Shown here: positions 140 to 55,600 of the stretch, one piece after another
Numbering within the stretch: the stretch's first letter is position 1
How the letters are laid out: each line of letters starts with the position of its first letter
Assembly (NCBI GenBank): GCA_030141605.1
Contig: JAQGDQ010001008.1
Location: 1-64,000 of the forward strand
From: Tubiluchus corallicola
Lineage: Eukaryota; Animalia; Priapulida
Direction of reading: 5' to 3'
Length of the DNA stretch: 64,000 nucleotides
Notes under the pieces: generated by a model
Database searches by the model: none
What the model was told of the DNA's origin: nothing
What the model saw: only the letters and a program-made list of their open reading frames with translations
Translations under genes and position numbers: made by a program

Positions 140-1126
140 GTAGGTAACTTGCGCTTTTGTGAGTTTTATGAAATTCTAAAGTGCGGTAAGTCCTCGATTA
201 ACGACTCCCCCGTTTGGCGACGTTTCGTTTTAATGACGCTGAATATTTAACACCTTTCCTCACTTAACGACGCACTGTTTCATTTTCACGACGCTGGATA
301 TTTAGCACCTTTCCTCACTTAACGACGCACCGTTTCGTTTTAACGACACTGGATATTTAACACCTTTCCTCACTTAACGACGCACCGTTTCGTTTTAACG
401 ACACTGGATATTTAGCACCTTTCCTCACTTAACGACGCACCGTTTCGTTTTAACGACACTGAATATTTAACACCTTTCCTCGCTTAACGACGCACCGTTT
501 CGTTTTAACGACACTGAATATTTAGCACCTTTCCTCACTTAACGACGCACCGTTTCGTTTTAACGACACTGAATATTTAACACCTTTCCTCGCTTAATGA
601 TGCACCGTTTCATTTTAACGACGCTGATTATTTAACACCTTTTTCTCGCTCTCATATAGACTTTATAATAGTTGTAAAATTGTAGTATAAAATCTCTTGT
701 TTCATTACAGATGAGACTGGAAGAAAGATCCGTGGTCGAGGTACCAGGCCTGACAACTACGACATGTATTGTGAGTATGGCTTCGTAAACTCTTTATTCG
801 TAATCACTCTAGCAAACCTCGTTGCATTGTTTATGTCGTATGCGATGTAACATGTGTGACATGGATTGTGAGTATGGCTTCGTAAACTCTTTATATGTAA
901 TCACTCTGACAACCTAGTTGCATTGTTTATGTCGTATGCGATGTAACATGTGTTATGTTCACTGAAGTATCTTAAATTAACGGCTGTTGATGACTGCTAA
1001 GATTGAAAAGACTACAGTCACTAAGAATGGACTGTGCCAAAATGGTGCTATGTTACGTATGGGGCCCCTTAAGTTACATATTCACAGGAAAATCTTTTGC
1101 ACTGTGGTTTATACTTGTTGTTGTTT

Positions 1127-1173
<47 letters not shown>

Positions 1174-4100
1174 GCTGTTGCTGATGTTGTTGCTGCTGCT
1201 GTTGCTGTTGTTGTTGTTGTTGTTACTGCTGTTGCTGCTGCTGCTGCTTTTGTTGTTGTTGTTGTTGTTGTTGTTCCTGTTGCTGCTGCTGGTGCTGTTG
1301 TTGTTGTTTTTGTTGTTGTTGTTGTTGTTGTTCCTGTTGCTGCTGTTGGTGCTGTTGTTGTTGTTTTTGTTGTTGTTGTTTTTATTGTTGTTGTTGCTGT
1401 TGCTGTTGCTGTTGCTGCTATTTATGCTGTTGCTGCTGCTGTTGCTGTGTTGTTGTTGTTGCTGTGTTGTTGTTGTTGCTGTTGGCTTTCTCTCTCATTT
1501 AAGCAGGGAATGCATTCACATCTGATACATCTTATTGCTCATTCACTCATCTTAGAGGATTGATACTTAGCAAAGTACTGGTCCTGCCAACACTAAATAG
1601 GCTAATGTGTTACAGTGTACATTTATGAGGAATATTGTTGTCAATTTCAGGGTATGATTACTATAAGAAGTACATCCCTCAGCCGGTGCGGATAAAACAC
1701 GGCTCAGTGTATGATGATTACGAAGTACTCGAAGAATTAGGAGTGTACGTATTCGTTAATTGCCTACTATTAATTTAAACTAACTTTAGTGAAATTCTCA
1801 ATGAACGTTCTACGTCGTAATTTGTAGTGTGAGTGACAGTACTTTTTCTACCTGGGCTCAGACATGTCTGCATGACCGCATGCGCACAACAGCTAAACAT
1901 CGCGTTGCTGGAGCGCCCTGTGCTGTGCTGTGAAGCAAACAGTACTACCCTCACCTGCTCTGGTTCCGTACAAGTATAAAGAAAGAACTAAAGAAAAAGA
2001 CTTACTATATCTAATATTATCGAGAATATTGAGTGAAAATAGGGGGCGCTGTAGTTAAAGCTTGATCCATTCACTGTAAGCACGTGACAACAATTGTTTC
2101 ACTTTCTCTTTAAAACTAGCCAGATTCTATTGTTTCACTTTCTAAAACTACCAGTGATTCTGATTGTTTCACTTTCTCTGTAAAACTAGCCAGTGATTCT
2201 GATTGTTTCACTTTCTCTGTAAAACTAGCCAGTGATTCTGATTGTTTCACTTACTCTTTAAAACTAGCCAGTGATTCTGATTGTTTCACTTTCTCTGTAA
2301 AACTAGCCAGTGATTCTGATTGTTTCACTTTCTCTGTAAAACTAGCCAGTGATTCTGATTGTTTCACTTTCTCTGTAAAACTAGCCAGTGATTCTGATTG
2401 TTTCACTTTCTCTTTAAAACTAGCCAGTGATTCTGATTGTTTCACTTTCTCTGTAAAACTAGCCAGTGATTCTGATTGTTTCACTTTCTCTGTAAAACTA
2501 GCCAGTGATTCTGATTGTTTCACTTTCTCTTTAAAACTAGCCAGTGATTCTGATTGTTTCACTTTCTCTTTAAAACTAGCCAGTGATTCTGATTGTTTCA
2601 CTTTCTCTGTAAAACTAGCCAGTGATTCTGATTGTTTCACTTTCTCTTTAAAACTAGCCAGTGATTCTGATTGTTTCACTTTCTCTTTAAAACTAGCCAG
2701 TGATTCTGATTGTTTCACTTTCTCTGTAAAACTAGCCCGTGATTCTGATTGTTTCACTTTCTCTGTAAAACTAGCCAGTGATTCTGATTGTTTCACTTAC
2801 TCTTTAAAACTAGCCAGTGATTCTGATTGTTTCACTTTCTCTGTAAAACTAGCCAGTGATTCTGATTGTTTCACTTTCTCTGTAAAACTAGCCAGTGATT
2901 CTGATTGTTTCACTTACTCTTTAAAACTAGCCAGTGATTCTGATTGTTTCACTTTCTCTGTAAAACTAGCCAGTGATTCTGATTGTTTCACTTTCTCTGT
3001 AAAACTAGCCAGTGATTCTGATTGTTTCACTTTCTCTGTAAAACTAGCCAGTGATTCTGATTGTTTCACTTTCTCTGTAAAACTAGCCAGTGATTCTGAT
3101 TGTTTCACTTTCTCTGTAAAACTAGCCAGTGATTCTGATTGTTTCACTTTCTCTGTAAAACTAGCCAGTGATTCTGATTGTTTCACTTTCTCTTTAAAAC
3201 TAGCCAGTGATTCTGATTGTTTCACTTTCTCTTAAAACTAGCCAGTGATTCTGATTGTTTCACTTTCTTTAAAACTAGCCAGTGATTCTGATTGTTTCAC
3301 TTTCTCTTTAAAACTAGCCAGTGATTCTGATTGTTTCACTTTCTCTTTAAAACTAGCCAGTGATTCTGATTGTTTCACTTTCTCTTTAAAACTAGCCAGT
3401 GATTCTGATTGTTTCACTTTCTCTTTAAAACTAGCCAGTGATTCTGATTGTTTCACTTTCTCTTTAAAACTAGCCAGTGATTCTGATTGTTTCACTTTCT
3501 CTTTAAAACTAGCCAGTGATTCTGATTGTTTCACTTTCTCTTAAAACTAGCCAGTGATTCTGATTGTTTCACTTTCTGTAAAACTAGCCAGATTCTGATT
3601 GTTTCACTTTCTTTAAAACTAGCCAGTGATTCTGATTGTTTCACTTTCTCTTTAAAACTAGCCAGTGATTCTGATTGTTTCACTTTCTCTTTAAAACTAG
3701 CCAGTGATTCTGATTGTTTCACTTTCTCTTTAAAACTAGCCAGTGATTCTGATTGTTTCACTTTCTCTTTAAAACTAGCCAGTGATTCTGATTGTTTCAC
3801 TTTCTCTTTAAAACTAGCCAGTGATTCTGATTGTTTCACTTTCTCTTTAAAACTAGCCAGTGATTCTGATTGTTTCACTTTCTCTTTAAAACTAGCCAGT
3901 GATTCTGATTGTTTCACTTTCTCTTTAAAACTAGCCAGTGATTCTGATTGTTTCACTTTCTCTTTAAAACTAGCCAGTGATTCTGATTGTTTCACTTTCT
4001 CTTTAAAACTAGCCAGTGATTCTGATTGTTTCACTTTCTCTTTAAAACTAGCCAGTGATTCTGATTGTTTCACTTTCTCTTTAAAACTAGCCAGTGATTC

Positions 4101-7100
4101 TGATTGTTTCACTTTCTCTTTAAAACTAGCCAGTGATTCTGATTGTTTCACTTTCTCTTTAAAACTAGCCAGTGATTCTGATTGTTTCACTTTCTCTTTA
4201 AAACTAGCCAGTGATTCTGATTGTTTCACTTTCTCTTTAAAACTAGCCAGTGATTCTGATTGTTTCACTTTCTCTTTAAAACTAGCCAGTGATTCTGATT
4301 GTTTCACTTTCTCTTTAAAACTAGCCAGTGATTCTGATTGTTTCACTTTCTCTTTAAAACTAGCCAGTGATTCTGATTGTTTCACTTTCTCTTTAAAACT
4401 AGCCAGTGATTCTGATTGTTTCACTTTCTCTTTAAAACTAGCCAGTGATTCTGATTGTTTCACTTTCTCTTTAAAACTAGCCAGTGATTCTGATTGTTTC
4501 ACTTTCTCTTTAAAACTAGCCAGTGATTCTGATTGTTTCACTTTCTCTTTAAAACTAGCCAGTGATTCTGATTGTTTCACTTTCTCTGTAAAACTAGCCA
4601 GTGATTCTGATTGTTTCACTTTCTCTTTAAAACTAGCCAGTGATTCTGATTGTTTCACTTTCTCTGTAAAACTAGCCAGTGATTCTGATTGTTTCACTTT
4701 CTCTTTAAAACTAGCCAGTGATTCTGATTGTTTGACAACAGATGGGAGGGCGTTTCATTCGCATATTCACTTTTTTTTACAGTGGAGCGTTCGGAGTCGT
4801 GCATCGGTGCGTGGAAAAGGCAACCGGAAACATGTTCGCCGGCAAGTTCATCAACACCATGAACCCGTCGGAGAAAGCCACGATCCGGAACGAGATCGAC
4901 ATCATGAATCATCTCCATCATCCACGATTGCTGCATCTTCACGACGCGTACGAGGCTCCTGACGAGATGTGCATGATCATGGAATTGTAAGCAGTGGTTT
5001 CTTTCTTAATGCACTGTAGCAAGATTAATTACTTTGCAGTATCTTAATGATTTTTGTAACAGATGAGTAAATCTTGGGTGATTTTCATTCTCTACCAGAA
5101 AGCGAATTCGAATCGAACCGAATTTCAGCGTTTAAATAGAATTCGAATTGAGTTTGAACAATTTTCGAACAATTTTTCGAACCTCTAGTAAAAAGTGGTC
5201 TTACAAAGATTGTGCATATTGCTTGATTTTGTCTTGCGATCACTTATCGAACCGAATTTCAGTATTTAATTAGAATTCGAACCGAGTTTGAACGATTTTC
5301 AAACAATTTTTCGAACCTCTAGTAAAAAGTGGTCTTACAAAGATTGTGCATATTGCTTGATTTTGTCTTGCGGTTACCTGTCCGAGAGCAGATCGTCTAA
5401 ATGCTCAGTTTGCAGTATTCGATAGACTAACTGCTCAGTTTGCAGTATTCGATAGACTAGCTGCTCACATCTTTATGGAAACTTTTCAGCTTATCGGGCG
5501 GAGAACTATTCGAGCGGATCACCGCGGAGGGGTACAGAATGACGGAAGCGGAAGCCATCAACTACATGCGTCAGATCTGCGAAGGACTGAAGGACATGCA
5601 CGAGAAGAACATCGTTCACCTGGACATCAAACCCGAGAACGTCATGGCGACGACGAAGCGGAGCTCCGACGTGAAGCTGATCGACTTCGGTCTGTCCGCC
5701 AAACTCGATCCGAACAAACCCGTGATGGTGACCACCGGAACGGCCGAATTTGCAGCTCCGGAGATAGTGGACAGGGAGCCGGTTGGCTTCTATACGGACA
5801 TGTGGGCTGTCGGCGTTCTGGCTTATGTAATGTGAGTATGTGTGAATGGTTTCAAATTACTGATGTCATGATTGTCAGTACAGTCAACCCTCGTTAAACC
5901 GGACTAATTGGGGGTGGGGGGTGGTCCTGTTTACCCGATTGTCCGATTTATCCGATATGCCTATATATGGTCTATATTATACAGGCATAATCACCTTAAT
6001 AAGGCCTATATACATTGCACTATATACTATACTGTATATTACTTTAAAATGGTTAACCTGTGAGGATAAAGAAATTATTGTACAGTTGGTAGGCCGTTTT
6101 GTGTTTAGTGCTCCGGCTCGGACGGAAACTGGTCAGTTTCCTTTACCACGGATGACGTCCGTCTTATCCGATATCCTGGCTAACGGGGTCCGGTTTAACG
6201 AGGGTCGACCGTATTTCACTTAGAGTTGCATTTATATTTTAATTTAGTGTAGAAGGCTAGCAGTGTCACTAGGCAGCTGTTTAAAGGAAAAAACTGACTG
6301 GACATCATCTTAAATTATGCCTGAAAACTATCTACCCTACTGCAAGGAGCATACATTAAGACCTCGCTCTACGACGTTAGTGCGTTTCCACAAAATGCGA
6401 CGTTGAGCAAAACGCCGTGTCGTTAAGCGAGGACTTACCGTACTATTTTCCAAGAACGACTTGCGTGAGAGAATTATTACCACAGAAATGTAATTTCGCA
6501 TTTGCACGGCTAGTTCTGCACTGCTACATGCATTTCGCCATTTGCTAGTTAGACGGACACTAGTCAACTCGTTGCACGATAAGCAGATGCCGTATCTCTC
6601 GCTTCAGAGGTGTTCAGTTGTGACGTAGCGCAAACGTTCGAGAGCTCGCGTGTGAGGCCGTGAGCACAGTGATAAACTTGAAATTTGCATTTTAAGCGTA
6701 AAAGTGTGGGTGATATGATGCATTTGTGTGGAAGAACTGTTTCTTTGTTTTAATGTGTTTATTCACTTTTTTTTAAATTGACAAGCAATGATTGTGCAAA
6801 GTTAGTTTGGAGATTGATTTTGGGAATGCTTGAGGTCACTATTTAATGAATTAAAGTCAATTTTTATACATTTATATATATATAATATATGATAATGTAT
6901 ATATCAATTTATATATGATAATATATATATATATATTAGCAGCATAAAGAAAATGCCATATGTTGTTGCCTGTCTATTGTCCAACCAATTTTAAACAAGT
7001 TTTTCTATTCGCCGCTCTCTCGTTTTCCATTTTCAACTTCGACTTTTTTGTTGTTGTTTAGTTTAAGCGGCTTGTCGCCATTCGCCGCTCTCTCATTTTC

Positions 7101-9206
7101 CATTTTCAACTTCGACTTTTTTGTTGTTGTTTAGTTTAGCGGCTTGTCGCCATTGTCCAACCGATTTTAAACAAGTTTTCCATTTTCAACTTCGACTTTT
7201 TTGTTGTTGTTTAGTTTAAGCGGCTTGTCGCCATTGTCCAACCGATTTTAAACAAGTTTTCCATTTTCAACTTCGACTTTTTTGTTGTTGTTTAGTTTGA
7301 GCGGCTTGTCGCCGTTCGCCGGAGACAACGACGTGGAAACGCTGAAGAACGTGAAGCGTTGTGATTGGATATTCGAACCAAATGCTTTCAAGGGCATTTC
7401 AGACGAAGCCAAAGATTTCATCAAGAACCTTCTGGTCAGGGAACGAACGTAAGTCGACCGTGTGTCATCCGGAAGATTCGGTACAGAGTTTTGTTAGATG
7501 GGGTTTTAATAGACAACAAAAGGAGGAGAAAAAATCATCTTAATAAATTATACTACTTTATAGCAATTTTATGCGTATATCTTACTCGCGTTGAAAGGAA
7601 TTTTAGTTTGTTTTCATTTTAAATCTCCCGCAATGCTGTTCCGAAGTCGCCATTACATGACGTCATACACGCACAACGTAAATCAGGGGAAGAAAAGGCA
7701 ATGTTAAATTATGACCTAAAAAACTTTCCGTGCAAATCTATATTACTTTGCATTACGCTTACCTGCTGGAAAGACTTAAATAACTAGACTAATAATTTAA
7801 AATGTTTGTGTCAATTGGTAAAATGTCGCTAACTCATACTCCAGGGTGCACCACTCAGTAACCAAAAACGTATTTTTAATCTTATTGACAAGATACAGTA
7901 AGTTAAAATTTTACTTAATTAGCAACGTGTGCGCTATGAATGTTCTGATTATTTTTTCAAACTTTACTCAGTGTTATCAAAACTTGTTTCAAACAACCAA
8001 CTGTCAAAATGGCTGCGTCTAACGGTCATCGTGGAACTTTTTTAAACAATTTTTCAGGTCTTCCGCAAGATTGAATAAGATTTTTTTTTTATCACGTTTT
8101 TTTTCTTGTCAATACCATTTCCCTGTTTAGGCCAAAATTATCCTCCATATTTTTGGATTAAATATCTTAATACAGTTACAGTTTTTTGATACAGTCGAGC
8201 CTTGTTATGTACAGAAAGCCTTCACCATTTCGTTCATGTTCCAAAGTCGTTTATTCTAAAGAGAATAATAAAGAGAACATTAACAAGTAAGAAAACGAAT
8301 AAAATGATAAACAGAAGCTTAATAATTACGAAGAAGTCAACTTATTGGCAAAAGTACTTTCTCAAATTTCAGAGATCGAATTCATAAACTTAATTAAATT
8401 ATTTAAATTCGTGTAACTCACATCGTTGGCTCTTCGTCAAGATTTAAAATTTCTCAAGGTACAAAATTTGGTTATAACTAAACGCTGTTATTAACTATAA
8501 CACAATAACGACAAAAACATTGCTGTGAATAAAAACACGACCACCATTGTTCTCCTCCTCACTTGTAGAGGGCAGCACCTTCCAATAAATAGGTGTCGTT
8601 ATGCATATTGCAGTTACAAGCCTCATTAAAATGTCAAACTCGCCGTAACGACAAATTTATTGCATCTGCATCATTTATACGGTTTGAATGATTAATACAA
8701 GGCTTGCATTTTCACCTAGGAAACGTATGACGGTTCACGAGTGTTTGGATCACCCGTGGTTGAAGGGTGATCTGCAACACTACGACACGAAGATTCCCAA
8801 TGAAAGATACCACGGCATTAGGAACAAGATTCGCGAGAAATACGTGAGTCACTCTGCGTACTTTGCACAGCAAAGCTTCAGTACTGAACTGATGTTTTAA
8901 AATTTAGAGAGATGTGATATTTATGATTTGAGAGCTGAGCTTGTCAATTATACATGTTGTTAAGTGAGATAAGTGCTGTATGTATTCTGAATTCAGCTTT
9001 TGTAGCCATGTTTATGTACAGGAATTGTGTTTTTCTCAGCCTTTATAAAAACATTCGAACGGAAGTGGTGCGGACAAGCCACTTGCATAGCAGTGTCTAG
9101 TTTTTCTGCTGGGTTACTGCTGTGTTTAACTGTCTTGAGAACGGATTTATTTAATTATAGAGTTCTGCCTGTGTAGTGTCTACAATAACGCGTATATGAT
9201 AATGAT

Positions 9207-9237
<31 letters not shown>

Positions 9238-10070
9238 CAATGCCGGTGACAGTGATGATGATCATGTTGACATTGACGACGATGATGAAAATGACAACCG
9301 CGGCAACGATGATGATGATGATGACGACTACCGTGATGATGATGATGATGATGACAACGGCAATGACTATGATGATGATGATGATGATAACGACGAAGAT
9401 GATGATGATAATGATGAAAACAACTGACATCGTTTACACTTACATTTTTTCAAGTCTTAATAAACAATTCTTATTTTTTAGGCAACATGGCCGACTCCAA
9501 TGCCTGCGATTGGACGCTTGGCTAACTACAGTTCTCTACGGAAGCATCGGCCTCAGGAATATCAGATGTACGAGTCTTCATTCGGTGAGTACAACATGGG
9601 AAATCTTTTCTATTTGAGTGAGAAACATGTGAAATCTTTTCTATTTGAGTGAAACATGGGAAATCTTTTCTATTTGAGTGAAACATGGGAAATCTTTTCT
9701 ATTTGAGTGAAACATGGGAAATCTTTTCTATTTGAGTGAAACATGGGAAATCTGTTCTATTTGAGTGGAAACATGGGAAATCTTTTCTATTTGAGTGGAA
9801 ACATGGGAAATCTTTTCTATTTGAGTGAAACATGGGAAATCTTTTCCATTTGAGTGGAAACATGGGAAATCTTTTCTATTTGAGTGAAACATGGGAAATC
9901 TTTTAAGCAATTTAATGGGGTACTCTAAACAAGTAATTACTTCTTGAGTACCCCACGGGTCATTTGCAGCTTGGCATCTTGTGTACATAATAATAAATAT
10001 GTTGTTAAATACTTTTATGTACAATGCTGCAATGATCGTTGTGGAAATATTTAATAAATAATAAATAATA

Positions 10071-10101
<31 letters not shown>

Positions 10102-10228
10102 CAATTATAATTTATTAATTAATTATATCTTGCCGAGTTCTTTGCTAGTAGAAAGAGCAAATTTGTAATTATTGTGTCAATTCACAGTAAATCATTCAAA
10201 AAAATTGATTTTCAGAAAAATTAGTGTA

Positions 10229-10318
<90 letters not shown>

Positions 10319-13300
10319 GAGTTTGCGAATTAATTAATTACAGAAAATAGCGTAATTAGTCTTCATTTACTTCAACCTAAATAATTTTAATTATTAAAAA
10401 TTAATTGTTATTTTAATTATTATTATTATTAATAATCGAAATTCTTAGAAATGTTGAAATGGTCGGAGAGCTGACGTGATTTAATGAAGACAAGTGGCTA
10501 TGTGGTCCCAGCATTTGAGTTGTACTCTGAAAGTCGTGTGTTCAAATCGCGCTCAGTTCTCATCTTTTTCATCTCTTTGTAAGGCAGTTCTAGTTTCAAA
10601 GTTTTTCTACCTATAATTGTTGACCGACAGTCTCGAGACTGAGATGATGATGATGATGATGACGATGAAGATGACGATGAGGGTGACGACAACGGCAATG
10701 ACGATGATGATGATGATGATGATAACGATGACAATGCCGATGATGAAAACGACAATTATCTCAGGTGATACATTCTCTGATTCCAGATCGCCGAGAGGCT
10801 GCACCGAGGTTTGTGGTGCGCCCGTACAGCACCATGGCTATAGAGGGGCGCAGCGCCAAGTTTGACTGCACCATAATTGCACCGTCTCCACCCGTCGTTA
10901 CCTGGTACGTGTCCTAGCAAGTCAAAGAAATGATTTATTTATTATTTAATTATTTAACATATTTTATATCCATTTTTTCATACTAGCTGAAGAGGTTTTG
11001 CTAATTACAGTCAAAACTCGTTAAACCGGACCCCGTTAGTCCGGATATCGGATAAGACGGACGTCATCCGTGGTAAAGGAAACTGACCGATTTCCCCCCG
11101 AGCCGGAGCGCTAAACACAACACGGCCTACCAACTGTACAATAATTTCTTTATCCTCACAGGTTAACTATTTTAAAGTAATATACAGTATAGTATATAGT
11201 GCAATGTATATAGGCAATTATTCCTGTATAATATAGACCATATATAGGCATATCGGTTAAATCAGACAATCGGCTAAACCGGACCCCCCCACATTAGTCC
11301 GGTTTAACGAGGGTTGACTGTATTGTCCTCTATAGTATATTAAGTATAGGGAATACTGCCATCTGCCAACATATCTGCTGCTGTGACAAAAATCTATTTT
11401 ACATAATAAATTTACCTCATTATAACACCAGCCAAGATGTAAAGTACAATGAAAAGCAGCCACGGGGTTGTAAAAATCAAGGATCTCCGATAAGAAAACT
11501 GTTATGATTCTTAAATTAAGATTTAGGTTTCGTACTGAAGTGACGGTACAAAAGTGAATGTTGAGGTTTTGAGCAAGGAACGTGCATTTTGAGACTACGA
11601 GAATTGCACAGCAAAGCTTCAGTACTGAACTGATGTTTTAAAATTTAGAGAGATGTGATATTTATGATTCAGGTGTTTAATGTAGTCATTTGTAGAAATC
11701 ATGGCCAAAACTACATTAAATATTACTAATGTATTGATGAACTAGTGCAGAATTTGCAAAGTTTAGATTTTATTGGCAATAATAGAGATAAAACAGACGA
11801 CTAATCTTTTTCATGGTGTTGTTGTTGTTGTTGGCATCCTTCTGTCTCGGAAGACAATGGAGTGTGCGCCAAGAGAGTCAGTCATTGATCACATTGATGG
11901 AGCTGCAGCGTCGACTGTGGCTGAGCAGTCCGATCCTTGAACGTCTCCAGGGCGCACGCCTGGGCAAGGTGTATGGAGATCCTGAGTTGCCCAGACAACA
12001 GGAACCCCCTCTCTTCCTCCCTGGTGTAGTCCAAAGGAAAGCGGAGCGATACGTTTGGCACCAGGTTGGCTGCAGGAGCTGCCGGAGTCAGTGAGCATGC
12101 TGCACTGGTCCGCCTTCAGGGCTCCACTCCTGATTTAGGTTTACTCCTCTACACATGGCCATTGGGTCACTTGACCTCCTCCGCCCTCTAGCCGTTGGCT
12201 GCTTGTGCAGCTCCTCCGCCTAGTGTCGAGATACAGTGTGGGCATCCTGCAAGCCTACAGCACCTGGTATTCCTAGGCGGTTACCCATCCAAGCACTAAC
12301 CAGGCTCTATGTTGCTTAACTTCGGCAATCAGATGAGAACCGGTGTTTTCAACGTGATTTGTTACCATGGTTACCATGGTGTATATACTAGATTATGGCC
12401 TAGTCTGTATTGTGTAGACGTCTTGCTATTTTGACTGGGGGGGGGGTATCGTACGATGTTATTCCATGTTAACTTCAAATGTGAATCTTACACATTATTG
12501 AGGAACGTCTCTGTATTATTTATAATGAACTGTTTGGTGCAATAAACTACGTTTAAAATAAATAGATCTGTAATTTTCACCTTCATTCAACTGTAATTAA
12601 CCTTTGCTTTACCTGTCAGGTACCACGAAGGTGATCAGCTCACGCAGTCTGCTAAATACATGCAGAAGTACTTCGGTCGCGATTATAAGCTGATCGTTAA
12701 CAGATGCAAGATGGAGGATGCGGGAGAGTACATCGTCTCCGCTGCCAACTCGTTTGGAACAAGAGAACAGACGGTTCATCTTAAAGTAGAAAGTACGTAG
12801 ATCTATGGTTCTCATCCAATGTCATATCTATGGTTTTCTTCCAATGTTAGTGCTATAGTTTTCTTGCCTTGTTAGATCTATGGTTCTCATCCAATGTCAT
12901 ATCTATGGTTTTCCTCTAATGTTACATTTATGGTTTTCTTCCAATGTTAGATCTATGGTTTTCTTCCAATGTTAGATCTATGGTTTTCTTCCAATATTAA
13001 TGCTATAGTTTTCTTCCAATGTAATGTTAGATCTGAGGTTTTGTTCCTATGCTAGATCTATGGTTTTCTTCCAATGTTAGATCTATGGTTTTCTTCCAAT
13101 GTTAGATCTATGGTTTTCTTCCAATGTTAGATCTTTGAGGGTGTTACATTTTAGGAAAAAATTTCCTCGGAAAATGTGTATATTCTTTCATATTCATGTA
13201 TAGGGCACATTTTACAACACACCACAGACAGTTACCGAAAGCAGCTTTTATATAAGTGCCACATAACGAACAGGTGCAATGTATCACACAACAAGCAGCT

Positions 13301-16300
13301 GCACATCCAGCTTAAAAATAAGCTCTATGCAAATAATTAATCATAATCACACAGAAACTAGGTTACCAGTGTTTCTAATACACCACAAGTAATTGTTTCA
13401 TCTGCTCATTACATAAACAACCATAAATTCATAATAGAGATGGGCGGGGCAGAACTACCGGTCTAGGGCATCGTAAAGTGTTGATACGCCCATGTCCAGT
13501 TGAGCCGATTGTGGCCGCAAGTCAATGACCACCCGTAGTTCTTCATTTTCTGTTATTCCTAACTTTGATTGATCATTATAAGATAAAAGTACAACATTTG
13601 AACTTTGTGCCGCAGTTTTTACAACGTCTCTTCATCTGTTGATATAGAAATACCCGAGGTTCATCAGCTTCCATTCCGCAGTTTGTCACCGACGCGACGA
13701 AGGCGGTGGGACCTGCGCTACGAGCACTGGGGTCTGCCGGAGGACAGAGCGCCCCGCTTCGACTTCCCGCTCCGTTCCCGGTTCATCCAGGAAGGATTTG
13801 GCGTCAAGCTGTCGGCGTGCATCAGCGGGAGGCCGGCGCCGTCGGTAAGAAAGTTTGATGCTTTAGATAATGAAGAGATTTGATGGTGTGGTTTTGAACA
13901 ATTTGAGTGACTGAAGTTTTGTTAACATCCCAGCTGCTGCTTGTATACAGCTTTTATATAAGTGCCACATAACGAACAGGTGCAAGGTATTACACAACAA
14001 TTAGCTGCACATCCTGCTTAAAAATAAGAGCTACACTTATATCTCAGTTTGCCGGACCTAGCTTTTACGGATATCGGACAAAATCTTGACCGTTAAAAAG
14101 TCCCGTATACTACGGACGCAGTCCATTGTTTCGGGAGCTGACCGCTAGTTGGCAGGCTGTCTCTTTGTTTACATCACGTACATCAGTGTGAACATATGTA
14201 TATCTACATATATAAAAATATATGCGGAGTTATTTGAGTCAACTGTCAACAGTTTTTACAAACTTTTGCATAAGAGCCGCCGGTTCTAAACTTTTTCGTG
14301 ACAATTAGGTGATTGACTCTGCATCACCGTGAGTCTAATACACAGCACCTACTGTATTAGTTTAGTATCGGCAAATACGGACAATCGGCAAATTCGAACC
14401 GACGTCTCTCCGCTTTTGTCAGGCAGACCGAGACATGAGTGTATTTCTATCCAGTTGGCTGCTTCTTGCTGTACTTAATGCTTCGTTAATAGAATAACCG
14501 CTTCAGCTTTTTTAATGCTTTTCAATGCTTTCTGGGAGTGCTGTGCGATTTACGCGACAAAACTCATGCTTTTTACTAAATAACACCGTATCAGCACCTT
14601 TTCCGTAGTTTAAGTGTTAAAGGTATGACTCGCTGACCGACACCAACTGATTATGTAGATAATTCTGATAACGTTTGTTCTTTATTATTAATGTTTGCTG
14701 TGCATTAATGAATGTGTTTGTCTTTTTTCTCTCTAACCAACTTACTTCCGGGGCCGGAACAAACAGGAGAGAAACGTAAGTAGTTCTTAACTTCATTTGC
14801 TTAAGTTTTTTCTAGCGTATTTCATAGTTACGAATTAAAACGAGTGTTCGATGCTTAGGTGTTACATGATAGGGTTTTGTGCATGTAGTAACATTGCAAT
14901 TAATAGTAACAGCCTTGCCCTTTGCTGTGCCGCTTAACTGGGCGATGAAGCTAAAGTCGAATTACACGGTTCCCACGGTCGGAGAAAATCCTGGAAGATG
15001 CTTGAAAATACAGGCTATCCTGGGAAGTCATGGAAAAATCAGGGAAAAAGATAATTTGGTAAAAAGTCGGGGAAGATGATGAAAAAGGGGCGATGAAGAA
15101 TTGTTTTTACGTTTCTCCGTTTTTCTTTGTTAAATTTCTCTGGTTTAAGAAGTCTTGAAGACAATGATAAGCCTTTTCACAGTTTCGTTGTGCACAGCCG
15201 TCATGTAACATGCGTGTAAAGCAAAGCCGTCTGCCGCACCAGTTAAGTGTACCACAGCAACGCGTCTTAACTACCACCGTCACGTTACATGTGTGTAAGG
15301 CAAAGCCGTCTGCCGCACCAGTTAAGTAACTTCAGCCGTTTTACATGGACTTTACTCAACTATGCATTAGTCTGTGCGTAGAGTGATTTACTAGCAGGAT
15401 CTTCTTTGGGAACAAGAAAAAATGAACTAGGTAAGGTTCTAGCTAGCTGTTAAAACAGTTACTATTACAATAGCATTAGCTGCGAGGCGTTGTCAAGTGT
15501 ACACAAATGCGTTGCCTGGTACGCTTAACCTTTGACCTTTCACGCTCATCATCAATCACTGGAACTGTGAAAAGGCTTATCATTCGAAACGAGTCGACAA
15601 TAAAGTTCTATTTTTATTTTTGCCAAATATGAAAAACTCTATTTTTGTTACTGTGTGATTTTCTTACGTTGATCCTGTGATATTCTAGTTTCTGTCATTA
15701 GCCATTTTGTCATTAGCCATGTTAGCCATTTTACTAATCAATTGCTTTCACAGGTGCAATGGTACAAAGACAATCATCCGCTCGCAAACGACGCTCATTA
15801 CAAGATCACATACGTGGCCGGCATGGCCGAACTTCAGATAAACAAGACGGACATGCAGGACGCTGGCCGATACAGCATCGTGGCAACAAACAAGATCGGC
15901 GAAGCCCAGTGCGAATGCCGGCTGTCGATTAATCGTAAGTTGTGATTGGTTTTTACATACAGCAAAATTTCTATAAGATTTATGCAAAAACAAATTATTT
16001 TAGTGGCTTGTAGTTAATTCAAACATGAACAGAAAAACTGAATAACTTAAACAAAAAGCAAGTAAGTTAGCTCAACAATCTATGTATTCATGTGCTGCCA
16101 TCTATTTACAGCAAGAGAAGACAGGACTCCACGAACATGGAGGCGATTTACCAGCAGCTTACCCCTAGATCAGGTGATCCGCGTGGAAGAGGAATCGTCC
16201 ACGACAACCATTGATCGGGGCGAGGGTTACTCGAGGGTCACCAGAAAATATGCCTCCTCTTCGGACACTAGAACAACTATTGTACCCGAACGTACGTGTG

Positions 16301-19300
16301 ATTAGTAACAGGTTTAATGTCGAGGGTAACCCGAACGTGCGTGTGATTAGTAACAGGTTTAATGTCGAGGGTAACTCGAACGTACGTGTGATTAGTAACA
16401 ATTTTAATGTCGAGGGTAGCCCGAACGTACGTGTGATTAGTAACAATTTTAATGTCGAGGGTAGCCCGAACGTACGTGTGATTAGTAACAATTTTAATGT
16501 CGAGGGTAACCGGAACGTACGTGTGATTAGTAACAATTTTAATGTCGAGGGTAACCGGAACGTACGTGTGATTAGTAACAATTTTAATGTCGAGGGTAAC
16601 CCGAACGTACGTGCGATTAGTAACAATTTTAATGTCGAGGGTAGCCCGAACGTACGTGTGATTAGTAACAGGTTTAATGTCGAGGGTAACCCGAACGTAC
16701 GTGTGATTAGTAACAATTTTAATGTCGAGGGTAGCCCGAACGTACGTGTGATTAGTAACAATTTTAATGTCGAGGGTAACCGGAACGTACGTGTGATTAG
16801 TAACAATTTTAATGTCGAGGGTAACCGGAACGTACGTGTGATTAGTAACAATTTTAATGTCGAGGGTAACCCGAACGTACGTGCGATTAGTAACAATTTT
16901 AATGTCGAGGGTAACCGGAACGTACGTGCGATTAGTAACAATTTTAATGTCGAGGGTAACCCGAACGTACGTGCGATTAGTAACAATTTTAATGTCGAGG
17001 GTAACCCGAACGCGCGTGCGATTAGTAACAATTTTAATGTCGAGGGTAACCCGAACGTACGTGTGATTAGTAACGATTTTAATGTCGAGGGTAACCCGAA
17101 CGTACGTGCGATTAGTAACAATTTTAATGTCGAGAGTAACTGATTTATTTTGATCATTCAGTTAAATCGTTTGGATTAAAGGAAAACATTACCTGATTTT
17201 AGACCCTGATCCATGGTATATAGTATTGTTTTTTAAGAATGACTTACGTGAAAGCATTATTACCTTGGAAGATTTTTCATTGTTGCATTGTATCATTCTT
17301 AGTTTTTCATTGTTGCAACCATTTTCAGCCATTTGTACTAACAATGGCAGCAGCACCTGCTTCGCAGACTGTACTTCGTCAGGAAAATGCATCTCCGCCT
17401 CGACATCAGGACAACCTGCTGAAATTATGCGTTAACGTAAAAATGTTAACTTGTCACGTGAATTTAAAATTTGGCAAATGTTTGTGTTACGTTATCAATA
17501 TCACAGAGACGCGCTGTACGATGGAGTATTTTATGTTTTGGTTTTGCAAATGTGTGTGATGGAACATTTCTTCCCAGCTTGCCGGTGCTGCTACCTACAC
17601 ACACCAGCATTTTATTATATTATCAAGCTGTTACTTAACTACATAAGTTATTATTAGTAAAAGATGTATGCTTTAGTCACATAGGTCTAAGTGAATATGA
17701 TCTAAAAACCTGTCCTGTTTTCCTTTAATTACAGTCAAACCTCGGGTATAAGGTACTCGCTTATCGCTTATCAGGGATATTCGCTTATAAGTGACCACCA
17801 ACACCGGTCCCGATTTTTCGTAACGTTTTTTCTATGTAAAAATCTTCGATATAAGGAACGATATCTTCAGGTCCCACGTAATAGAAGCCCAGGTAAATTA
17901 CCTCGCTTATAAGGGACCTTATGATCAAAGCGAAATTGATCGATTTTTAACCTCAAGTTTTCGCAAACTCGGCCTGCGAACAGCTCGGTTTCCGTGGTTA
18001 CATACATCTCGCAACACTGAAGGAGCTTCCTACATACCGTTTGCACTGAATGTGTAGCAATAATCCATAAAAATATGGGTAAAAGTACAGAAAAGTACAG
18101 GTCTAGATACGCCCTCGGTCTGACTCAACTTCGGCTATAAGAGACATCGGATATAAGGGTAGGTTTTTTTCCAGTCCCTAGGTGTCCCTTATATCCGACG
18201 TTGACTGTATTTAAATGAGTTTAGCAACGAAGCCAGAAATCTTGTGAGCTTCATTGCTGTATAGACGCCGTGCACTACTGAAAATTACTAACAAGAATCG
18301 CTAATCAATTATATTTATATTTTATATAAAATTTTACAGCAAGGAAGCCCGGCGTGAGAACTCCGGCGTTTACAGAAAAGTTATTCAGACAGACGGTTCG
18401 AGAAGGCGAAGCCGTATTATTCACTTGCACCTGCGTAGGATACCCAGAACCTACCGTAGAATGGTTTAAAGATGGCCAGGTGAGCACGTCCGTACACGTG
18501 TTTATGATGCAAGATTGTTTTGTAGATTTTAGCAAGAATTTATTACGGATTAAGAAGCGAAATATTAAGCCTTGCGAGAAGAAACTTTAATTTTCTGTAT
18601 TTCATGCAGTTTAGATTTTGACAATTACATAAAGAATAACAAATTATGTAGTGAAAAACGATTTTCTTATGTTATAAAAGGCCAAGTACACAACACTGTT
18701 AAACGATGTGACAGTAGAGCTACCAATGTCTTATGTACTGCAGTTCAGTTCGTGTGAAGTTCAATAATTATTTACACACTCTCCGTCTAGTATTCAGTTA
18801 TCTTCATCTGCAGTCCTGGGGAAAATAATGGTGGGGGGGGGGTGCGACTTGTAAGACAAGAGAATTTTCCCGGTCAACAAGTCGGCATAGTTAAAACTAC
18901 GTTATTATGATTCAATTTGGTCTAAACTTAATTTCTTGGTGTTTTTTTTATATTGAGAAACGCTCAATATATTTTGGACTTTTATATTCTAGCATCAAAT
19001 TATCAGGAAAATATTCAAAAAATACTAAAAATTTTATTTTACTACCCCCGTACCCATTTTCCTATCTAGAAACTAGTACTGCAATTGTAAAAAACTTGTA
19101 TTTTCAAACTCTGACAGTAACTCATGGAAGCTGTCATTTTGCTTCGGGTTTTTTCTGTTGCCAAGACCAGGTCTTCGTCAGGAAGAGCCATCTGCTGGAT
19201 TTAAACATAACTTCAATGTGTTCTTGCAAAGTTCGTAGCAACCAACATTTGTTGTACGGTTACTAAGTGTTTTGTAGAAACGTGACAAAAAACATTGGCT

Positions 19301-22300
19301 GATTTTAGCAGTGTTTTTCTCAAGATTATGTTTTTCACTGCACAACCTGCACCTCAACTTCAACGTGGAATATCTCAGCTTAGAAATAACATAGAGTGAT
19401 GAACTTGGTATCAAAATGATCCTCATGAAATGGAGATTCTAGAAAAAGCGTAATTTCTAACTTGTGGAAGTTTTTGTTACTCAAGCACGCAACTATTGTT
19501 TTATTTTAATTCATTCAGTATTTTCCGTTCATTTTATTGTGATTTTCCCTATGGAAAATTCCCTATAGAAAACTTAAACTCTTACTGTGGGCTATTGGCA
19601 CTATTACAACTGGTGCCTGAAAGAAAAATCCTAAACTAAAACAGGTAACCAAGAATCCAGGATTAACTTATACTATATAGCTGCTATGCTGCTGTACTTA
19701 CGTATAAGTGCTGCTACCTATAGGTTAAAGTGAGAAACTGGCTGTAAGAACTGCTGTATTGTATAAGTATCTCCAGATTCATTTACGGACGATAACAACG
19801 CAGTGATTTTCTTCCAGGCTCTGAGGCCATCCGATGCCATAGATATTCAATACAAATCGGGCGTGTGCACGTTAGGCATAGCCGAAACTATAGCAGAGGA
19901 CGACGGCGAATACACGTGTAAAGCAGTGAGCCGGGAAGGTTATGATTCTACTTCAGCTAGACTGATCGTTAAAGGTACGCTTCCATTAGGGAAGGTTATG
20001 ATTCTACTTCAGCTAGATTGATCGTTAAAGGTACGCTTCCAGTAGGGAAGGTTATGATTCTACTTCAGCTAGATTGATCGTTAAAGGTACGCTTCCATTA
20101 GACAAGGTTACGATTCTACTTCAGCTAGATTGATCGTTAAAGGTACGCTTTCATTAGGGAAGGTTATGATTCTACTTCAGCTAGATTGATCGTTAAAGGT
20201 ACGCTTTCATTAGGGAAGGTTATGATTCTACTTCAGCTAGACTGATCGTTAAAGGTATGCTTCCATTAGACAAGGTTATGATTCTACTTCAGCTAGATTG
20301 ATCGTTAAAGGTACGCTTCCATTAGGGAAGGTTATGATTCTACTTCAGCTAGATTGATCGTTAAAGGTACGCTTCCATTAGGGAAGGTTATGATTCTACT
20401 TCAGCTAGATTGATCGTTAAAGGTACGCTTTCATTAGGGAAGGTTATGATTCTACTTCAGCTAGATTGATCGTTAAAGGTACGCTTCCAGTAGGGAAGGT
20501 TATGATTCTACTTCAGCTAGATTGATCGTTAAAGGTACGCTTTCATTAGGGAAGGTTATGATTCTACTTCAGCTAGATTGATCGTTAAAGGTATGCTTCC
20601 AGTAGGGAAGGTTATGATTCTACTTCAGCTAGATTGATCGTTAAAGGTACGCTTCCAGTAGGGAAGGTTATGATTCTACTTCAGCTAGATTGATCGTTAA
20701 AGGTACGCTTCCATTAGGGAAGGTTATGATTCTACTTCAGCTAGATTGACCGTTAAAGGTACGCTTCCATTAGGGAAGGTTATGATTCTACTTCAGCTAG
20801 ATTGACCGTTAAAGGTATGCTTTCATTAGGGAAGGTTATGATTCTACTTCAGCTAGATTGATCGTTAAAGGTACGCTTCCATTAGGGAAGGTTATCATTC
20901 TACTTCAGCTAGATTGATCGTTAAAGGTACGCTTCCATTAGGGAAGGTTATGATTCTACTTCAGCTAGATTGATCGTTAAAGGTACGCTTCCATTAGGGA
21001 AGGTTATGATTCTTCTTCAGCTAGATTGATCGTTAAAGGTACACTTCCATTAGGGAAGGTTATGATTCTACTTCAGCTAGATTGATCGTTAAAGGTACGC
21101 TTCCAGTAGGGAAGGTTATGATTCTACTTCAGCTAGATTGACCGTTAAAGGTACGCTTCCATTAGGGAAGGTTATGATTCTACTTCAGCTAGATTGACCG
21201 TTAAAGGTATGCTTTCATTAGGGAAGGTTATGATTCTACTTCAGCTAGATTGATCGTTAAAGGTATGCTTCCATTAGGGAAGGTTATGATTCTACTTCAG
21301 CTAGATTGATCGTTAAAGGTATGCTTCCATTAGGGAAGGTTATGTTTCTACTTCAGCTAGATTGATCGTTAAAGGTACGCTTCCATTAGGGAAGGTTATC
21401 ATTCTACTTCAGCTAGATTGATCGTTAAAGGTACGCTTCCATTAGGGAAGGTTATGATTCTACTTCAGCTAGATTGATCGTTAAAGGTACGCTTTCATTA
21501 GGGAAGGTTATGATTCTACTTCAGCTAGATTGATCGTTAAAGGTACACTTCCATTAGGGAAGGTTATGATTCTACTTCAGCTAGATTGATCGTTAAAGGT
21601 ACGCTTCCAGTAGGGAAGGTTATGATTCTACTTCAGCTAGATTGATCGTTAAAGGTACGCTTCCAGTAGGGAAGGTTATGATTCTACTTCAGCTAGATTG
21701 ATCGTTAAAGGTACGCTTCCATTAGGGAAGGTTATGATTCTACTTCAGCTAGATTGATCGTTAAAGGTACACTTCCATTACGTGCAATTTCATTTAAATT
21801 TAAAAATTAGCTAAATACAGTAAACTCCGCATAACTTGAATCGAAAAAACTTTGAGTTAGACGATGCTGACCATTTTCCAACAGAGAAACTCTAAACCCC
21901 TCTTCCAGACGGCAAGCTAAATAGAAGACAGAAAGTCAACCCTTCTATACATCAACGACGATATTTGATGACAATTACATAAAGAATGACAAATTATGTA
22001 GAGAAACTCTAAACCCCTCCTCCATACGGCTGAGCTAAGTAGAAGGCAGAAAGTTAACCCTTCTATACATAAACAAAGATATTTGATGACAATTACATAA
22101 AGAATTATAACTTATGTAGTGAAACATGATTTTCTTATGTTACAAAAGGACATGTTCACAACACTGTTAAACAATATGACAGTGGAGCTACCAATGTCTT
22201 ATGTACTGCAGTTGAGTTTGTGCAAAGTTCAATTATTTACACTCTCCATCAAATATTCAGTTATCTTCACCTGCAGTCCTGGGAAAAATAACTGGGGGGG

Positions 22301-29440: not shown

Positions 29441-29459
29441 TTGATTTACTGTGGTTTCT

Positions 29460-30190: not shown

Positions 30191-30263
30191 CCTCATTTAG
30201 CCAATCACCAAGGTATTTATAGCTTTGTGTTTCTCCAATTTCGCCTTTGCTATTTTTCTTTAA

Positions 30264-30990: not shown

Positions 30991-31054
30991 ATGAAGACTT
31001 TCGTGTGTTTATTGGTGATAGCTGCTTTTGTCAGTTTGCTGAAAGGAATTACAG
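30991..31054 (+). CDS. Signal peptide exon (MKTFVCLLVIAAFVSLLKGITG)
   Basis: ATG, hydrophobic core, CAG|gtaagc donor. Confidence 0.85.
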
Positions 31055-47188: not shown

Positions 47189-47214
<26 letters not shown>

Positions 47215-47219
<5 letters not shown>

Positions 47220-50933: not shown

Positions 50934-51507
50934 ATTCAAGTACCACAACATGTAGAGCACACTGCTGTACGCTTGTCGATCCATGGTTTGCTATCGAATG
51001 TCAAACGTAATACGATCACAGGCTGAAATATTACAATCAATTAGTGCCATTCGCAACATGAATTTGCCAACGTTTAAGCAACAAGAAAAAAATGCAAATT
51101 AAAAAAAAACAAAAAATGAAAAAGAAACATTTTTGTAGAGACTTTTAGCTACAATCTCAACTTAGACGGGCATCTTCAACATCTGAGTTTTTTATACCTA
51201 GTTTATATTAAACAACAACCGTTAGTTTGGCGACTAATAAGTTAAGGTTAAGGAGAACAAGATGCTGAAAAATCACGAGTCACTCCTGACTGCAAGGCTC
51301 GGGTTCAAATCCCAATATAGAAATAATGTTTAATGATTTTTTAACTTCTGCCTGTTATCGCAGTTAAATCACCCCATCGCAGTTAAAATTTCATTGCTGA
51401 GTCGATGGCAAGTAACTTGTCCCATATTTTAAAATATAAAACTGACACTGAATAATTTGGCAGGTCATGTTAAGCTACTGGAGTAAATGCCAGCAAAGAT
51501 TTAACCA

Positions 51508-52492: not shown

Positions 52493-52628
52493 TCATAAAA
52501 AGCCCCAGGCTTCTAATGCTTTAACTACGAAATCTTCATGGCTAGTGAGTATGTCGTTATCATATGTTTTACAGGAATGCGTGCGGCCATGGTACAGGTC
52601 CCCGTCCAGCCACAAGCCAAACTGACCC
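52493..52628 (-). CDS. OXR1: TLDc last coding exon ([14 protein letters not shown]...EAWGFL*)
   Basis: Canonical TLDc C-terminus; TGA followed 2 nt later by a GTGAGT donor. Confidence 0.94.
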
Positions 52629-55600
52629 CTGAAACAAAGTTTTCATACAGTTCAGCACAAACATGATGGTTGGCAGGACAGGAACATAGGTCACCGTCCA
52701 GCCACAAGCCAAACTGACCCCTGAAACAAAGTTTTAATACAGTTCAGTACTATGATACTCAGTGGCAGCATAAACATGTGGTTGGCAGGACAGGAACATA
52801 GTTCACGGTCAAGGATAACCTTCTAACTTGCAGCATATAACGGGAGGAGATGTCACCCTGGGATGCATATCCTCAAAGAGATAAATCAGAAGCAGTTTTC
52901 TCAACAGTCACCCATCCATTTACAAAGCTAGGCCAGCATGGCTCAACTGCGGTCACTAAACACACTCACTATCATCATTTCAAGGCTTCGCCGCATAATT
53001 TAACGGCAGTACCATCATGTAAGAAATTGTTCTGTACTATTCGTCGTTGTTTTTGCCTCCCTCCAGCAAAATGTTATGTACCACCCTGTACAATAGCTCA
53101 TGTTAAGATATACATTGATGCTTAAACAACAAAATCAGTGCAGAAGCTTCAACTGAAAGCTTAAAATGGTTCAAAGTACAAATAAATGCACAATGTTCAA
53201 AGGCAATTAAGTCTGTTCATTACTACGATTGACACACGATGTGTAATGAGGACAAGTAAAGTACAAAGGTACTTACTCTCCAGCACATTAATGATAAAGT
53301 ACAAAAGTACTTACTCTCCAGTGCATTAACGATAAAGTGCAAAAGTACTTACTCTCCAGCACATTAACGATAAAGTACAAAAAGTACTTACTCTCCAGCA
53401 CATCAACTATAAAGTACAAAAGTACTTACTCTCCAGCACATTAACAATAAAGTACAAAAGTACTTACTCTCCAGCACATCAACTATAAAGTACAAAAAGT
53501 ACTTACTCTCCAGCACATCAACTATAAAGTACAAAAGTACTTACTCTCCAGCGCATTAACAATAAAGTACAAAAAGTACTTACTCTCCAGCACATTAACT
53601 ATAAAGTACAAAAGTACTTACTCTCCAACACATTAAAAATAAAGTACAAAAGTACTTACTCTCCAGCACATTAACGATAAAGTACAAAAGTACTTACTCG
53701 CCAGCACATTAACGATAAAGTACAAAAGTACTTACTCTCCAGCACATTAACGATAAAGTACAAAAGTACTTACTCTCCAGCACATTAACGATAAAGTACA
53801 AAAGTACTTACTCTCCAGCACATTAACAATAAAGTACAAAAGTACTTACTCTCCAGCACATTAACAATAAAGTACAAAAGTACTTACTCTCCAGCACATT
53901 AACGATAAAGTACAAAAGTACTTACTCTCCAGCACATTAACAATAAAGTACAAAAGTACTTACTCTCCAGCACATTAACAATAAAGTACAAAAGTACTTA
54001 CTCTCCAGCGCCTATACATAAACTGTCTTTATTGCCCTTAAGGAAGAAGGCATTATCCCCGGTCCATCCGAACGTTTTGAACTCCGGATAAAAGGTAAAC
54101 AACAACGATTCTCCGGTGCCGTAGAAATGATCACTAAGTTTCAATGCGCACGAAGTTATAGCACCAAATACCTGAAAAAGGCAATTAGTTTAGTACTAAG
54201 ATGGATTTAGTACTATGGGCAAAAAGCTAGGTACATCGTAGGTGTTTACAGGTATTAAAAACACATTAAACATAATTATTATTTGTGCTTCCATAGCAAA
54301 ATCGGTAATTAAGCTTTTCTAGTTATTCACATATCCTAAATCTCCATTTCATGAGGATCATTTTGATACCAAGTTCATCTCTCTATGTTATTTCTAAGCT
54401 CAGATAATCCACATTGAAGTTGAGGTGCAGGCTGCACACTGAAAAACATAATCTTGAGAAAATCATTGTTAAAGTTAGCCATTGTTTTTTGTCACGTTTC
54501 TACAAAACACTTAGCAACCGCACAAATGTTGGTTGCTACGGACTTTTGGTTGCTACAACACATTGAAGTTACATTTAAATCCAGTAGATGGCTCTTCCTA
54601 ATGCTTGGCAACAGAAAAAAAACACATAATTAACTTGCTGGCCAATGAGAAATTTCACTTTCACACATAATATTCACTAGTTTTCTTACAATGAGAAATT
54701 TGCAGGCAAAAATAGCTAATGGATCTATTAAGAGGAATTCTTAAACTTTACAATGTTTAAGAATGTTTATTCTGATCACATTTTTGTGCTGAGATCTTTT
54801 GTGGGTTTGTGCATTTTCAGAAAATTTACCAACTCTTTTAAGCTAATGCATTCAACGAGATTCAATTCACTGTACAGTCAACCCTCGTTAAACCGGACCC
54901 CGTTAGTCCGGATATCGGATAAGACGGACGTCATCCGTGGTAAAGGAAACTGACCGATTTTCGTCCGAGCCGGAGCGCTAAACACAACATGGCCTATCAA
55001 CTGTACAATAATTTCTTTATCCTCACAGGTTAACTATTTTAAAGTAATATACAGTATAGTATATAGTGCAATGTATATAGGCCTTATTAAGGTGATTATT
55101 CCTGTATAGTATAAACCATATATAGGCATATCGGATAAATCGGACAATCGGCTAAACCGGACCACCCCCCCATTAGTCCGGTTTAACGAGGGTTGACTGT
55201 ATTGTACTGTATATTACTCAATGTACATCATATTATCTTGACGATACTCATTCAATTCAATAAGTGAAACATTTTTCATAAGTATCCGCGGATTTTTCTC
55301 AGAGACACTCATACCTCGGTTTTTGAACGTCTCCGTACTCGTACAAATCGGTTTTCGACCAGAAAATTCCAGTTGAAATTGTCTCCGCTCTCGACCAGAA
55401 TTTCGGTACTCAACCAACCTCATGGGATGAACGCATGCGTGGCGAGCCGAGTAGAGCCGAGCGTAACCGACCGCGCCCGAGAGTAGTCACGCACAACATT
55501 TGAATCGCCTAACATCGCTAAGTGCTTTCTACGCTTATTTTTCTCTGCTTTTCCATGCAGGAATAATTATGTTTTTCTTTCTGAGCAATTCTATTATGTT

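Follow-up and report, generated by a model that had tools for sequence, protein, structure and literature searches.

Six unrelated tandem repeats span splice junctions in two genes that lie on opposite strands of the window, by which we mean the whole 64-kb stretch of DNA analysed. Four of them sit on donors and two on acceptors, with units of 38–97 bp in 2–33 copies, and all six are found at the places given in the initial annotation (771, 16292, 19975, 54001, 7295 and 52629). These six arrays are mirages of the amphioxus type, or minisatellites of the F7 type, and the class has already been described. We assign a probability of roughly 60% to the reading that they are locus-specific minisatellites spanning splice junctions, tolerated by use of the exon-proximal site, and that their excess over chance comes mainly from general crowding and from the choice of the window. 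The junction repeats are probably neutral.

Gene models and splice junctions

The window holds animal DNA of about 38% GC, and TRF returned 48 rows for it. The two gene models and the tandem arrays are listed in Table 1. The twitchin model forms a single open frame across its 16 exons, with GT-AG at 15 of 15 introns, and is 52% identical to mollusc twitchin over 759 columns. The introns of the OXR1/NCOA7 model are also GT-AG (4/4). Its product is 77% identical to OXR1 of Priapulus caudatus, and the next 11 matches reach at most 62%. In a tree of 21 rows, of which 20 were hand-picked from 120 homologues with a single priapulan as the only scalidophoran, it paired with Priapulus with a support of 100/98. 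The host is therefore likely a priapulan distinct from P. caudatus. We took the junctions as real because of the homology and the open frame; two of them are also given by a spliced relative, the protein P0241.

Table 1. Gene models and tandem arrays of the window.
Feature	Position	Strand	Remarks
Twitchin/projectin 3' end (kinase and Ig domains)	101..22587	+	16 exons, from homology and open frame
Twitchin exons 1-6	101-139, 711-770, 1651-1744, 4783-4986, 5490-5831, 7296-7448	+	
Twitchin exons 7-12	8720-8843, 9482-9584, 10787-10904, 12620-12792, 13648-13844, 15754-15934	+	
Twitchin exons 13-15	16112-16291, 18340-18479, 19818-19974	+	matched by P0241
Twitchin exon 16, likely last coding exon	22583-22587	+	tail of P0241
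OXR1/NCOA7 3' end (TLDc domain)	52494..60489	-	5 coding exons
OXR1/NCOA7 coding exons	60489-60309, 57824-57708, 56956-56804, 54171-54002, 52628-52494	-	
97 bp x2, donor 771	761..953 (first unit 761-857)	+	10 exon nt
73-81 bp x4, acceptor 7295	~7007..7321	+	
45 bp x19, donor 16292	16284..17140	+	8 exon nt
56 bp x33, donor 19975 (last coding intron)	19933..21780	+	42 exon and 14 intron nt
38-39 bp x20, donor 54001	53257..54009	-	8 exon nt
92 bp x2, acceptor 52629	52596..52747, to 52806 with third partial copy	-	
29 bp x11	9586..9904	+	starts at intron position +2; adjoins donor, 0 decoys
25 bp x13	12798..13134	+	starts at intron position +6; 0 decoys
55 bp x7.7, purely intronic	221..642	+	81 nt from donor, 68 nt from acceptor
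39 bp x68, purely intronic	2093..4733	+	ends 49 nt before acceptor 4782
134 bp x2 and 30 bp x2.4, intronic	5112..5467	+	second ends 22 nt before acceptor 5489

P0241 was the sole close match among the three obtained when twitchin exon 13 was searched against 1.84 billion cluster representatives. It is a protein of 170 aa, encoded on a 1,120-base Logan contig, and 156 of 159 residues are identical to twitchin exons 13-16. P0241 reads IVPE followed by PRKP across 16292 and has the C-terminus LIVKA; therefore, the first (exon-proximal) donor was taken at both 16292 and 19975. The statement that the exon-proximal copy keeps the frame was borne out. The ending of P0241 also requires that the last twitchin exon starts with C-N-stop. 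Four acceptors between 21781 and 26000 give this tail, and the one at 22583 has the best pyrimidine tract. Two other ends of the gene were considered and rejected. A last exon at 23627 (EIIKWH) was ruled out by P0241. Read-through at 19975, with no intron, was considered since no downstream homologous exon was found; P0241 ends in KA, not KGT. As P0241 differs at 3 of the 159 residues, its source may be a sister species or another haplotype, perhaps one without the arrays. It fixes the junctions but is not evidence for a choice among decoys. For the 7295 junction, a search for a same-species protein gave no such match, the best one being 81–82% identical.

Eight units were cross-compared. They had nothing in common beyond chance words of 7–8 nt, and each matched its own locus alone within the 64-kb window. 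No dispersed related copies of the junction units were present in the window, and hence the units do not behave as a TE family. This agrees with the initial annotation, which had regarded them as unrelated local copies. The units are 95–98% identical to their consensus, and the copies carry substitutions and indels of their own.

Other arrays lie near junctions and copy none. The two arrays described as beginning in or beside a donor (9585 and 12798) do begin beside donors, but no junction is copied in either. Among the arrays said to end just before acceptors, those ending at 4733 and 5467 were recovered, but the small repeat at 15693-15732 was missed both by TRF and by the exon-blind detector and was excluded from all counts. 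Equally large arrays were also found in purely intronic and intergenic DNA.

Excess of junction-spanning repeats over chance

Duplications were called by TRF and by a second detector, both blind to exons. The 761 repeat was detected as two adjacent matches with an offset of 96–97 nt, which we joined into one event. For the null, each array was collapsed to one unit, a unit counted as spanning when it reached 5 nt or more to either side of a junction, and wholly exonic placements were excluded. The main test covered the two gene bodies with 17 events, and the 10 arrays outside the gene bodies were left out.

Spanning was observed for 6 of the 17 events, where 1.66 would be expected (P 0.003). 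The expectation rose to 2.37 (P 0.019) once microsatellites and the dispersed repeats internal to the window were taken out. When the whole window and all 27 arrays were considered, the six spanning arrays compared with 1.5–2.0 expected (P 0.003–0.01), and the excess also held when arrays were shuffled only within their own intron (P 0.012–0.021). The whole-window and own-intron nulls were run on an earlier gene model (last exon at 23627, 18 events), as was a first version of the 100-nt counts given below; the corrected model with 17 events led to the same conclusions. On that earlier model, dropping donor 19975 left 5 of 15 events spanning (P 0.008–0.036). Nominally, therefore, the excess over chance in this window is 2.5–3.6-fold. 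These P values are optimistic because the window was flagged for this very pattern. The excess is thus a nominal one, for one selected window.

The result also depends on how much intron space is available. The arrays make up 30% of the two gene bodies. With the intron space halved, as if the other half were younger fill, P rose to 0.076, and at 0.4 of the space to 0.16, the shrinkage being assumed and not measured; window-internal repeats and microsatellites alone remove about one third of the intron space (21.6 to 14.8 kb). A spanning repeat is present at 6 of the 40 junctions. The other 34 have none, and 11 of the 17 duplications span no junction, so that the description of the repeats as systematically anchored on junctions was overstated.

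Crowding at intron ends or targeting of splice sites

We compared spanning with mere proximity. Among the units within 100 nt of a junction, 6 of 12 span it against 3.6–3.7 expected (P 0.11–0.12, a comparison of low power with n=12). This does not support the proposal of a mutational process focused on the splice junction itself. Non-spanning arrays were also found within 100 nt of a junction in 6 of 11 cases, against 2.2 expected (P 0.01), or against 3.2 when TEs were removed (P 0.065). Microsatellites served as a control class and were not in excess at this distance from junctions (3/8 vs 2.2). The pattern likely fits crowding at intron ends, through longer survival or a donor-side insertion bias, better than the copying of splice sites as such.

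Several factors may contribute to this crowding. The excess would have two main sources. Arrays cover 30% of the gene bodies, and the old unique intron DNA would lie near the exons, protected from deletion, with younger TE fill in the intron middles. The selection of the window for the pattern would add to the excess. Two observations count against parts of this explanation. In its simple form, the model of protected ends predicts an excess at both ends of the intron, and within 10 nt of junctions an excess was seen on the donor side only. In addition, the excess of spanning repeats survives the whole-window, gene-body, TE-masked and own-intron nulls (P 0.003–0.021).

The donor side raises the main alternative, a mutational bias. 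In transcribed genes, the exon/5'-intron border would attract DNA breaks or insertions (through R-loops, the edge of a nucleosome or polymerase pausing), and both tandem duplications and TE insertions would arise there more frequently. At 6 of 19 donors an array lies within 10 nt (with starts from −42 to +6), against 1.1–1.5 expected (P 0.0003–0.002). The same distance gave no excess at acceptors (2/21 vs 1.1–1.6 expected). TE-like repeats point in the same direction, with 7 of 18 within 100 nt of a donor against 2.7 expected (P 0.012) and 0 of 18 near an acceptor, and the excess of spanning repeats that remains after own-intron shuffling is also in favour of a bias. However, these TE-like repeats are not enriched when either intron end is counted (7 vs 5.3 expected, P 0.26), and their limits were drawn from self-matches within the window only. 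The proximity tests come from one window, chosen after the pattern had been seen, and their P values are uncorrected although several thresholds were tried. We regard a mutational bias as a possible but rather unlikely explanation. With somewhat more reserve still, we mention its wider form, in which the exon/5'-intron border would be an insertion hot zone, duplications and TEs alike would prefer donors, and about one fifth of the donors would be copied into decoy arrays genome-wide.

The finding of six mirages in 64 kb makes a genome-wide count feasible. If the donor-side bias is true genome-wide, splicing or exon chromatin would be tied to where insertions arise. If there is no such bias, the arrays would be ordinary by-products of a repeat-rich genome. 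If the hot zone is true, the genome would offer a natural test bed of many loci for site choice by the spliceosome and for intron gain by duplication.

Decoy sites and their probable tolerance

The six arrays contain a total of 74 decoy sites. Splice signals are kept in nearly all copies, with GT in 69 of 70 donor copies and AG in 4 of 4 acceptor copies. We saw no sign of selection against decoy GT or AG, since there is a single change in the 70 donor copies. The duplication at donor 771 provides one decoy, GTGAGT, which is out of frame and runs into an early stop. At donor 16292 there are 18 decoys (17 GT and 1 GC), all in frame and followed by a stop after 4 codons, and the 19 GTAAGT decoys at donor 54001 meet an immediate stop. 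The repeat at acceptor 7295 has decoy AGs at 7061, 7134 and 7214, with stops from all three. The duplication at acceptor 52629 has one decoy AG at 52721, which causes a frameshift; its third, partial copy lies upstream and has no exon part. The array at donor 19975 differs from the rest. Its 32 GT decoys leave the domains intact and merely replace the tail KA by a tail that is 14 residues longer. The assertion that decoys hit a stop or a frameshift is therefore correct for all other arrays but not for 19975.

Copy numbers are 2–4 in the acceptor arrays vs 2, 19, 20 and 33 in the donor arrays, which are tiny samples. The idea that acceptor arrays stay small owing to costlier upstream decoy AGs is not claimed here, as the number of arrays is tiny.

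How such arrays could be tolerated follows from their geometry. Copies that span a donor would leave the true donor first, and copies that span an acceptor would leave the true acceptor last. Because the true site adjoins the intact exon in either geometry, the arrays would be tolerated, and they would likely persist as long as the spliceosome still takes the copy that borders the intact exon. First-donor choice together with exon definition may account for this tolerance, and rare products of decoy use would be removed as nonsense transcripts.

The decoys might instead have a function, either tuning expression through nonsense-mediated decay or giving alternative C-termini, such as the twitchin tail with 14 additional residues. 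The near-complete conservation of the decoy GTs would fit this, as would the complete, longer-tailed protein obtained from every decoy at 19975, and second and third sites are used in two human genes according to PMC1557585. However, intact decoys are also expected of young or homogenised repeats, which these units resemble in their 95–98% identity to consensus. Moreover, the lengths of the units show no relation to the reading frame, use of most decoys would bring an immediate stop, arrays of the same size occur in purely intronic and intergenic DNA, and the sole spliced product seen, P0241, takes the first donors. We therefore consider a function of the arrays very improbable.

Array ends and assembly

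The reading that we prefer, of tolerated locus-specific minisatellites, also has to account for how the arrays arose. The array at 761-953 has a length of 1.99 units, that at 19933-21780 has 33.0 units and that at 16284-17140 has 19.04 units. The overlap at the ends is 0 nt at 771, 0 nt at 19975 and about 2 nt at 16292, so that these three arrays end almost bluntly. The remaining ends are ambiguous: at 54001 the last unit has 28 of 38 nt, at 52629 there is an imperfect match of 5–7 nt, and at 7295 the structure is complex. Near-blunt ends in three of six arrays argue against microhomology priming as a common route, and the microhomology-primed duplication suggested in the initial annotation is thus disfavoured. 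We infer that the arrays would have been born as ordinary short tandem duplications, by fill-in of a break or nick and end joining, and later growth likely occurred by slippage or unequal exchange. Short tandem duplications with blunt ends agree with end joining after fill-in of a staggered break, and either slippage or unequal exchange would account for the later addition of whole units.

The assembly was checked with contigs over one stretch, 6945-7700. Contig X4 of the probable source sample (7097-7206) crosses the exon-to-intron unit junction of the 7295 repeat with 0 differences. Contig X3 of a second sample (7203-7313) crosses the unit junction with 1 difference and has 30 nt on its short side, one below the rule for a crossing. 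This second sample had no contig cover over 6945-7178, from which no absence follows. In X1, the contig depth over the 7295 repeat was about 4-fold (813–845 vs 213), which is not a copy number. The copy numbers of the long arrays are those of the assembly. Since the copies carry their own changes and contigs of two samples cross the 7295 unit junction, there is hardly any chance that the arrays are assembly artefacts.

Comparison with known systems

The suggestion of possible novelty in the initial annotation was not upheld, as the class is known from amphioxus and from human genes. Our literature search, in which most subscription papers were outside the scope, yielded neither a report on priapulans nor a test for enrichment across a whole genome. 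The original description of the Adh3 mirage is reportedly that of Canestro et al. 2002. In amphioxus, tandem repeats with units of 10–160 bp lie over exon-intron borders at both donors and acceptors; splicing is undisturbed and the origin is stated to be unclear (PMC3087553). The name "mirages" was given to them in amphioxus Adh3, and further cases are the globins BflGb6 and BflGb9, troponin C and PGBD5 (PMC3087553 and PMC3902484). The arrays described here resemble these mirages in several respects. The units are locus-specific and lie over donors and acceptors, the splice signals are copied, there are several arrays per gene region, and the host is a repeat-rich marine invertebrate. The unit sizes overlap (38–97 bp here), and normal splicing may be kept here as well, P0241 having the first donors at 16292 and 19975. 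They differ in that the amphioxus globin cases have 3–6 copies, whereas up to 33 are found here, and in that the present animal is likely a priapulan with six cases in one 64-kb window, counted against a null for the first time. Priapulans are ecdysozoans by established classification.

In humans, five genes carry 5–25 reiterated donors, of which the most upstream one is chosen: F7 IVS7 (37 bp x5-9), intron 2 of the interferon-inducible gene 6-16, CBS IVS13, LAMIN B2 and PDGF intron 4 (PMC1557585). For F7, selection of the most upstream of 5–9 identical donors by a 5'-to-3' process was shown experimentally in mammalian cells; the upstream site alone is used in F7, LAMIN B2 and PDGF, and the first three in 6-16 and CBS (same source). 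First-donor choice is therefore an established result for F7. By analogy, the same selection of the most upstream donor may also operate in the present animal. In the human genes, as here, the first unit takes in the end of the exon together with its donor, and identical pseudo-donors follow. The human cases are scattered single ones in a large genome and concern donors only, whereas the present ones are clustered and include acceptors.

On intron gain by tandem duplication, PMC3087553 cites Rogers 1989, Zhuo 2007 and Gao & Lynch 2009. Human segmental duplications are also reported to contain internal tandem repeats where exons and introns meet (PMC2812944). Both resemble our arrays in the tandem duplication of sequence with splice signals and in the potential to change gene structure; here, in contrast, the repeats lie inside existing introns, and there is no evidence of an added intron or exon. 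Most mirages described so far are isolated cases in single genes of lancelets or humans, to which the six arrays in 64 kb likely add the priapulan lineage.

Repeats in the window

Some of the arrays, or tandem repeats, of the window are related to each other, namely the 40-bp and 42-bp arrays of 34631-36413, and this pair resembles the arms of a foldback element. Furthermore, the 51-bp array at 37570-39640 matched 43801-43951, which lies at the far end of the broken LTR retrotransposon. This match to the opposite end of the retrotransposon suggests that the array likely arose by growth within a single LTR. The head of the 541-bp dispersed element is a full 5S rRNA match in both copies (Rfam RF00001; 76 and 97 bits), and the element is likely a 5S-derived SINE.

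In the introns of both genes, a splice donor was found within 100 nt of 7 of the 18 dispersed TE-like repeats, as against 2.7 expected (P = 0.012, uncorrected). None of the 18 was near an acceptor.

Repeats and additional gene models in the window
Feature	Position	Strand	Description
Open frame, 515 codons	27839-26295	-	likely signal peptide, cysteine-rich repeats, threonine run
Small gene model	30991-33474	+	signal-peptide-like first exon; cysteine-rich exon; LDL-receptor class A exon (Pfam, 8e-08)
Dispersed element, 541 bp, two copies	11825-12372; 56171-56720 (-)		copies 96% alike
40-bp and 42-bp arrays	34665-35619; 35865-36398 (region 34631-36413)		inverted relatives, about 80%
Broken LTR retrotransposon	37490-44161	-	RNase H and integrase domains (Pfam); frameshifts, stops
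Donor-near TE-like repeats (examples)	5876, 7529, 8863, 11003, 56711, 57591, 60232		introns of both genes

Gene models and gene ends

A Pfam search with the 515-codon open frame gave no match. The cysteine-rich exon of the small gene model looks Kunitz-like by eye, without a Pfam match, and arrays were absent from the splice junctions of this model.

Two nucleotides past the OXR1 stop codon there is a good donor (AG|GTGAGT), and a candidate acceptor lies near 51022 (52491 to 51022, minus strand). Should this putative intron of the 3' UTR exist, the start of the 52-bp array at 49423-50933 would fall about 90 nt inside the last exon.

Among the twitchin donors GTACG is a common opening sequence, with which 5 of the 15 introns begin (four GTACGT and one GTACGC). 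The N-terminal residues of P0241, a 170-aa protein from a Logan contig, read CCRLITARED and resemble CCHLFTARED, the in-frame reading of the 177-bp twitchin intron 12 (15935-16111, plus strand). This resemblance implies that the source contig either keeps the short intron 12 or takes an upstream acceptor.

At the twitchin C-terminus (19818-22587, plus strand), a KA-stop tail directly follows the Ig domain of that region. Downstream of the twitchin end in the window, we found no exons matching the C-terminal extension of homologues. Many homologues from arthropods and molluscs extend approximately 200 residues beyond this point and contain further Ig-like sequence, whereas the twitchin of this window stops at KA.
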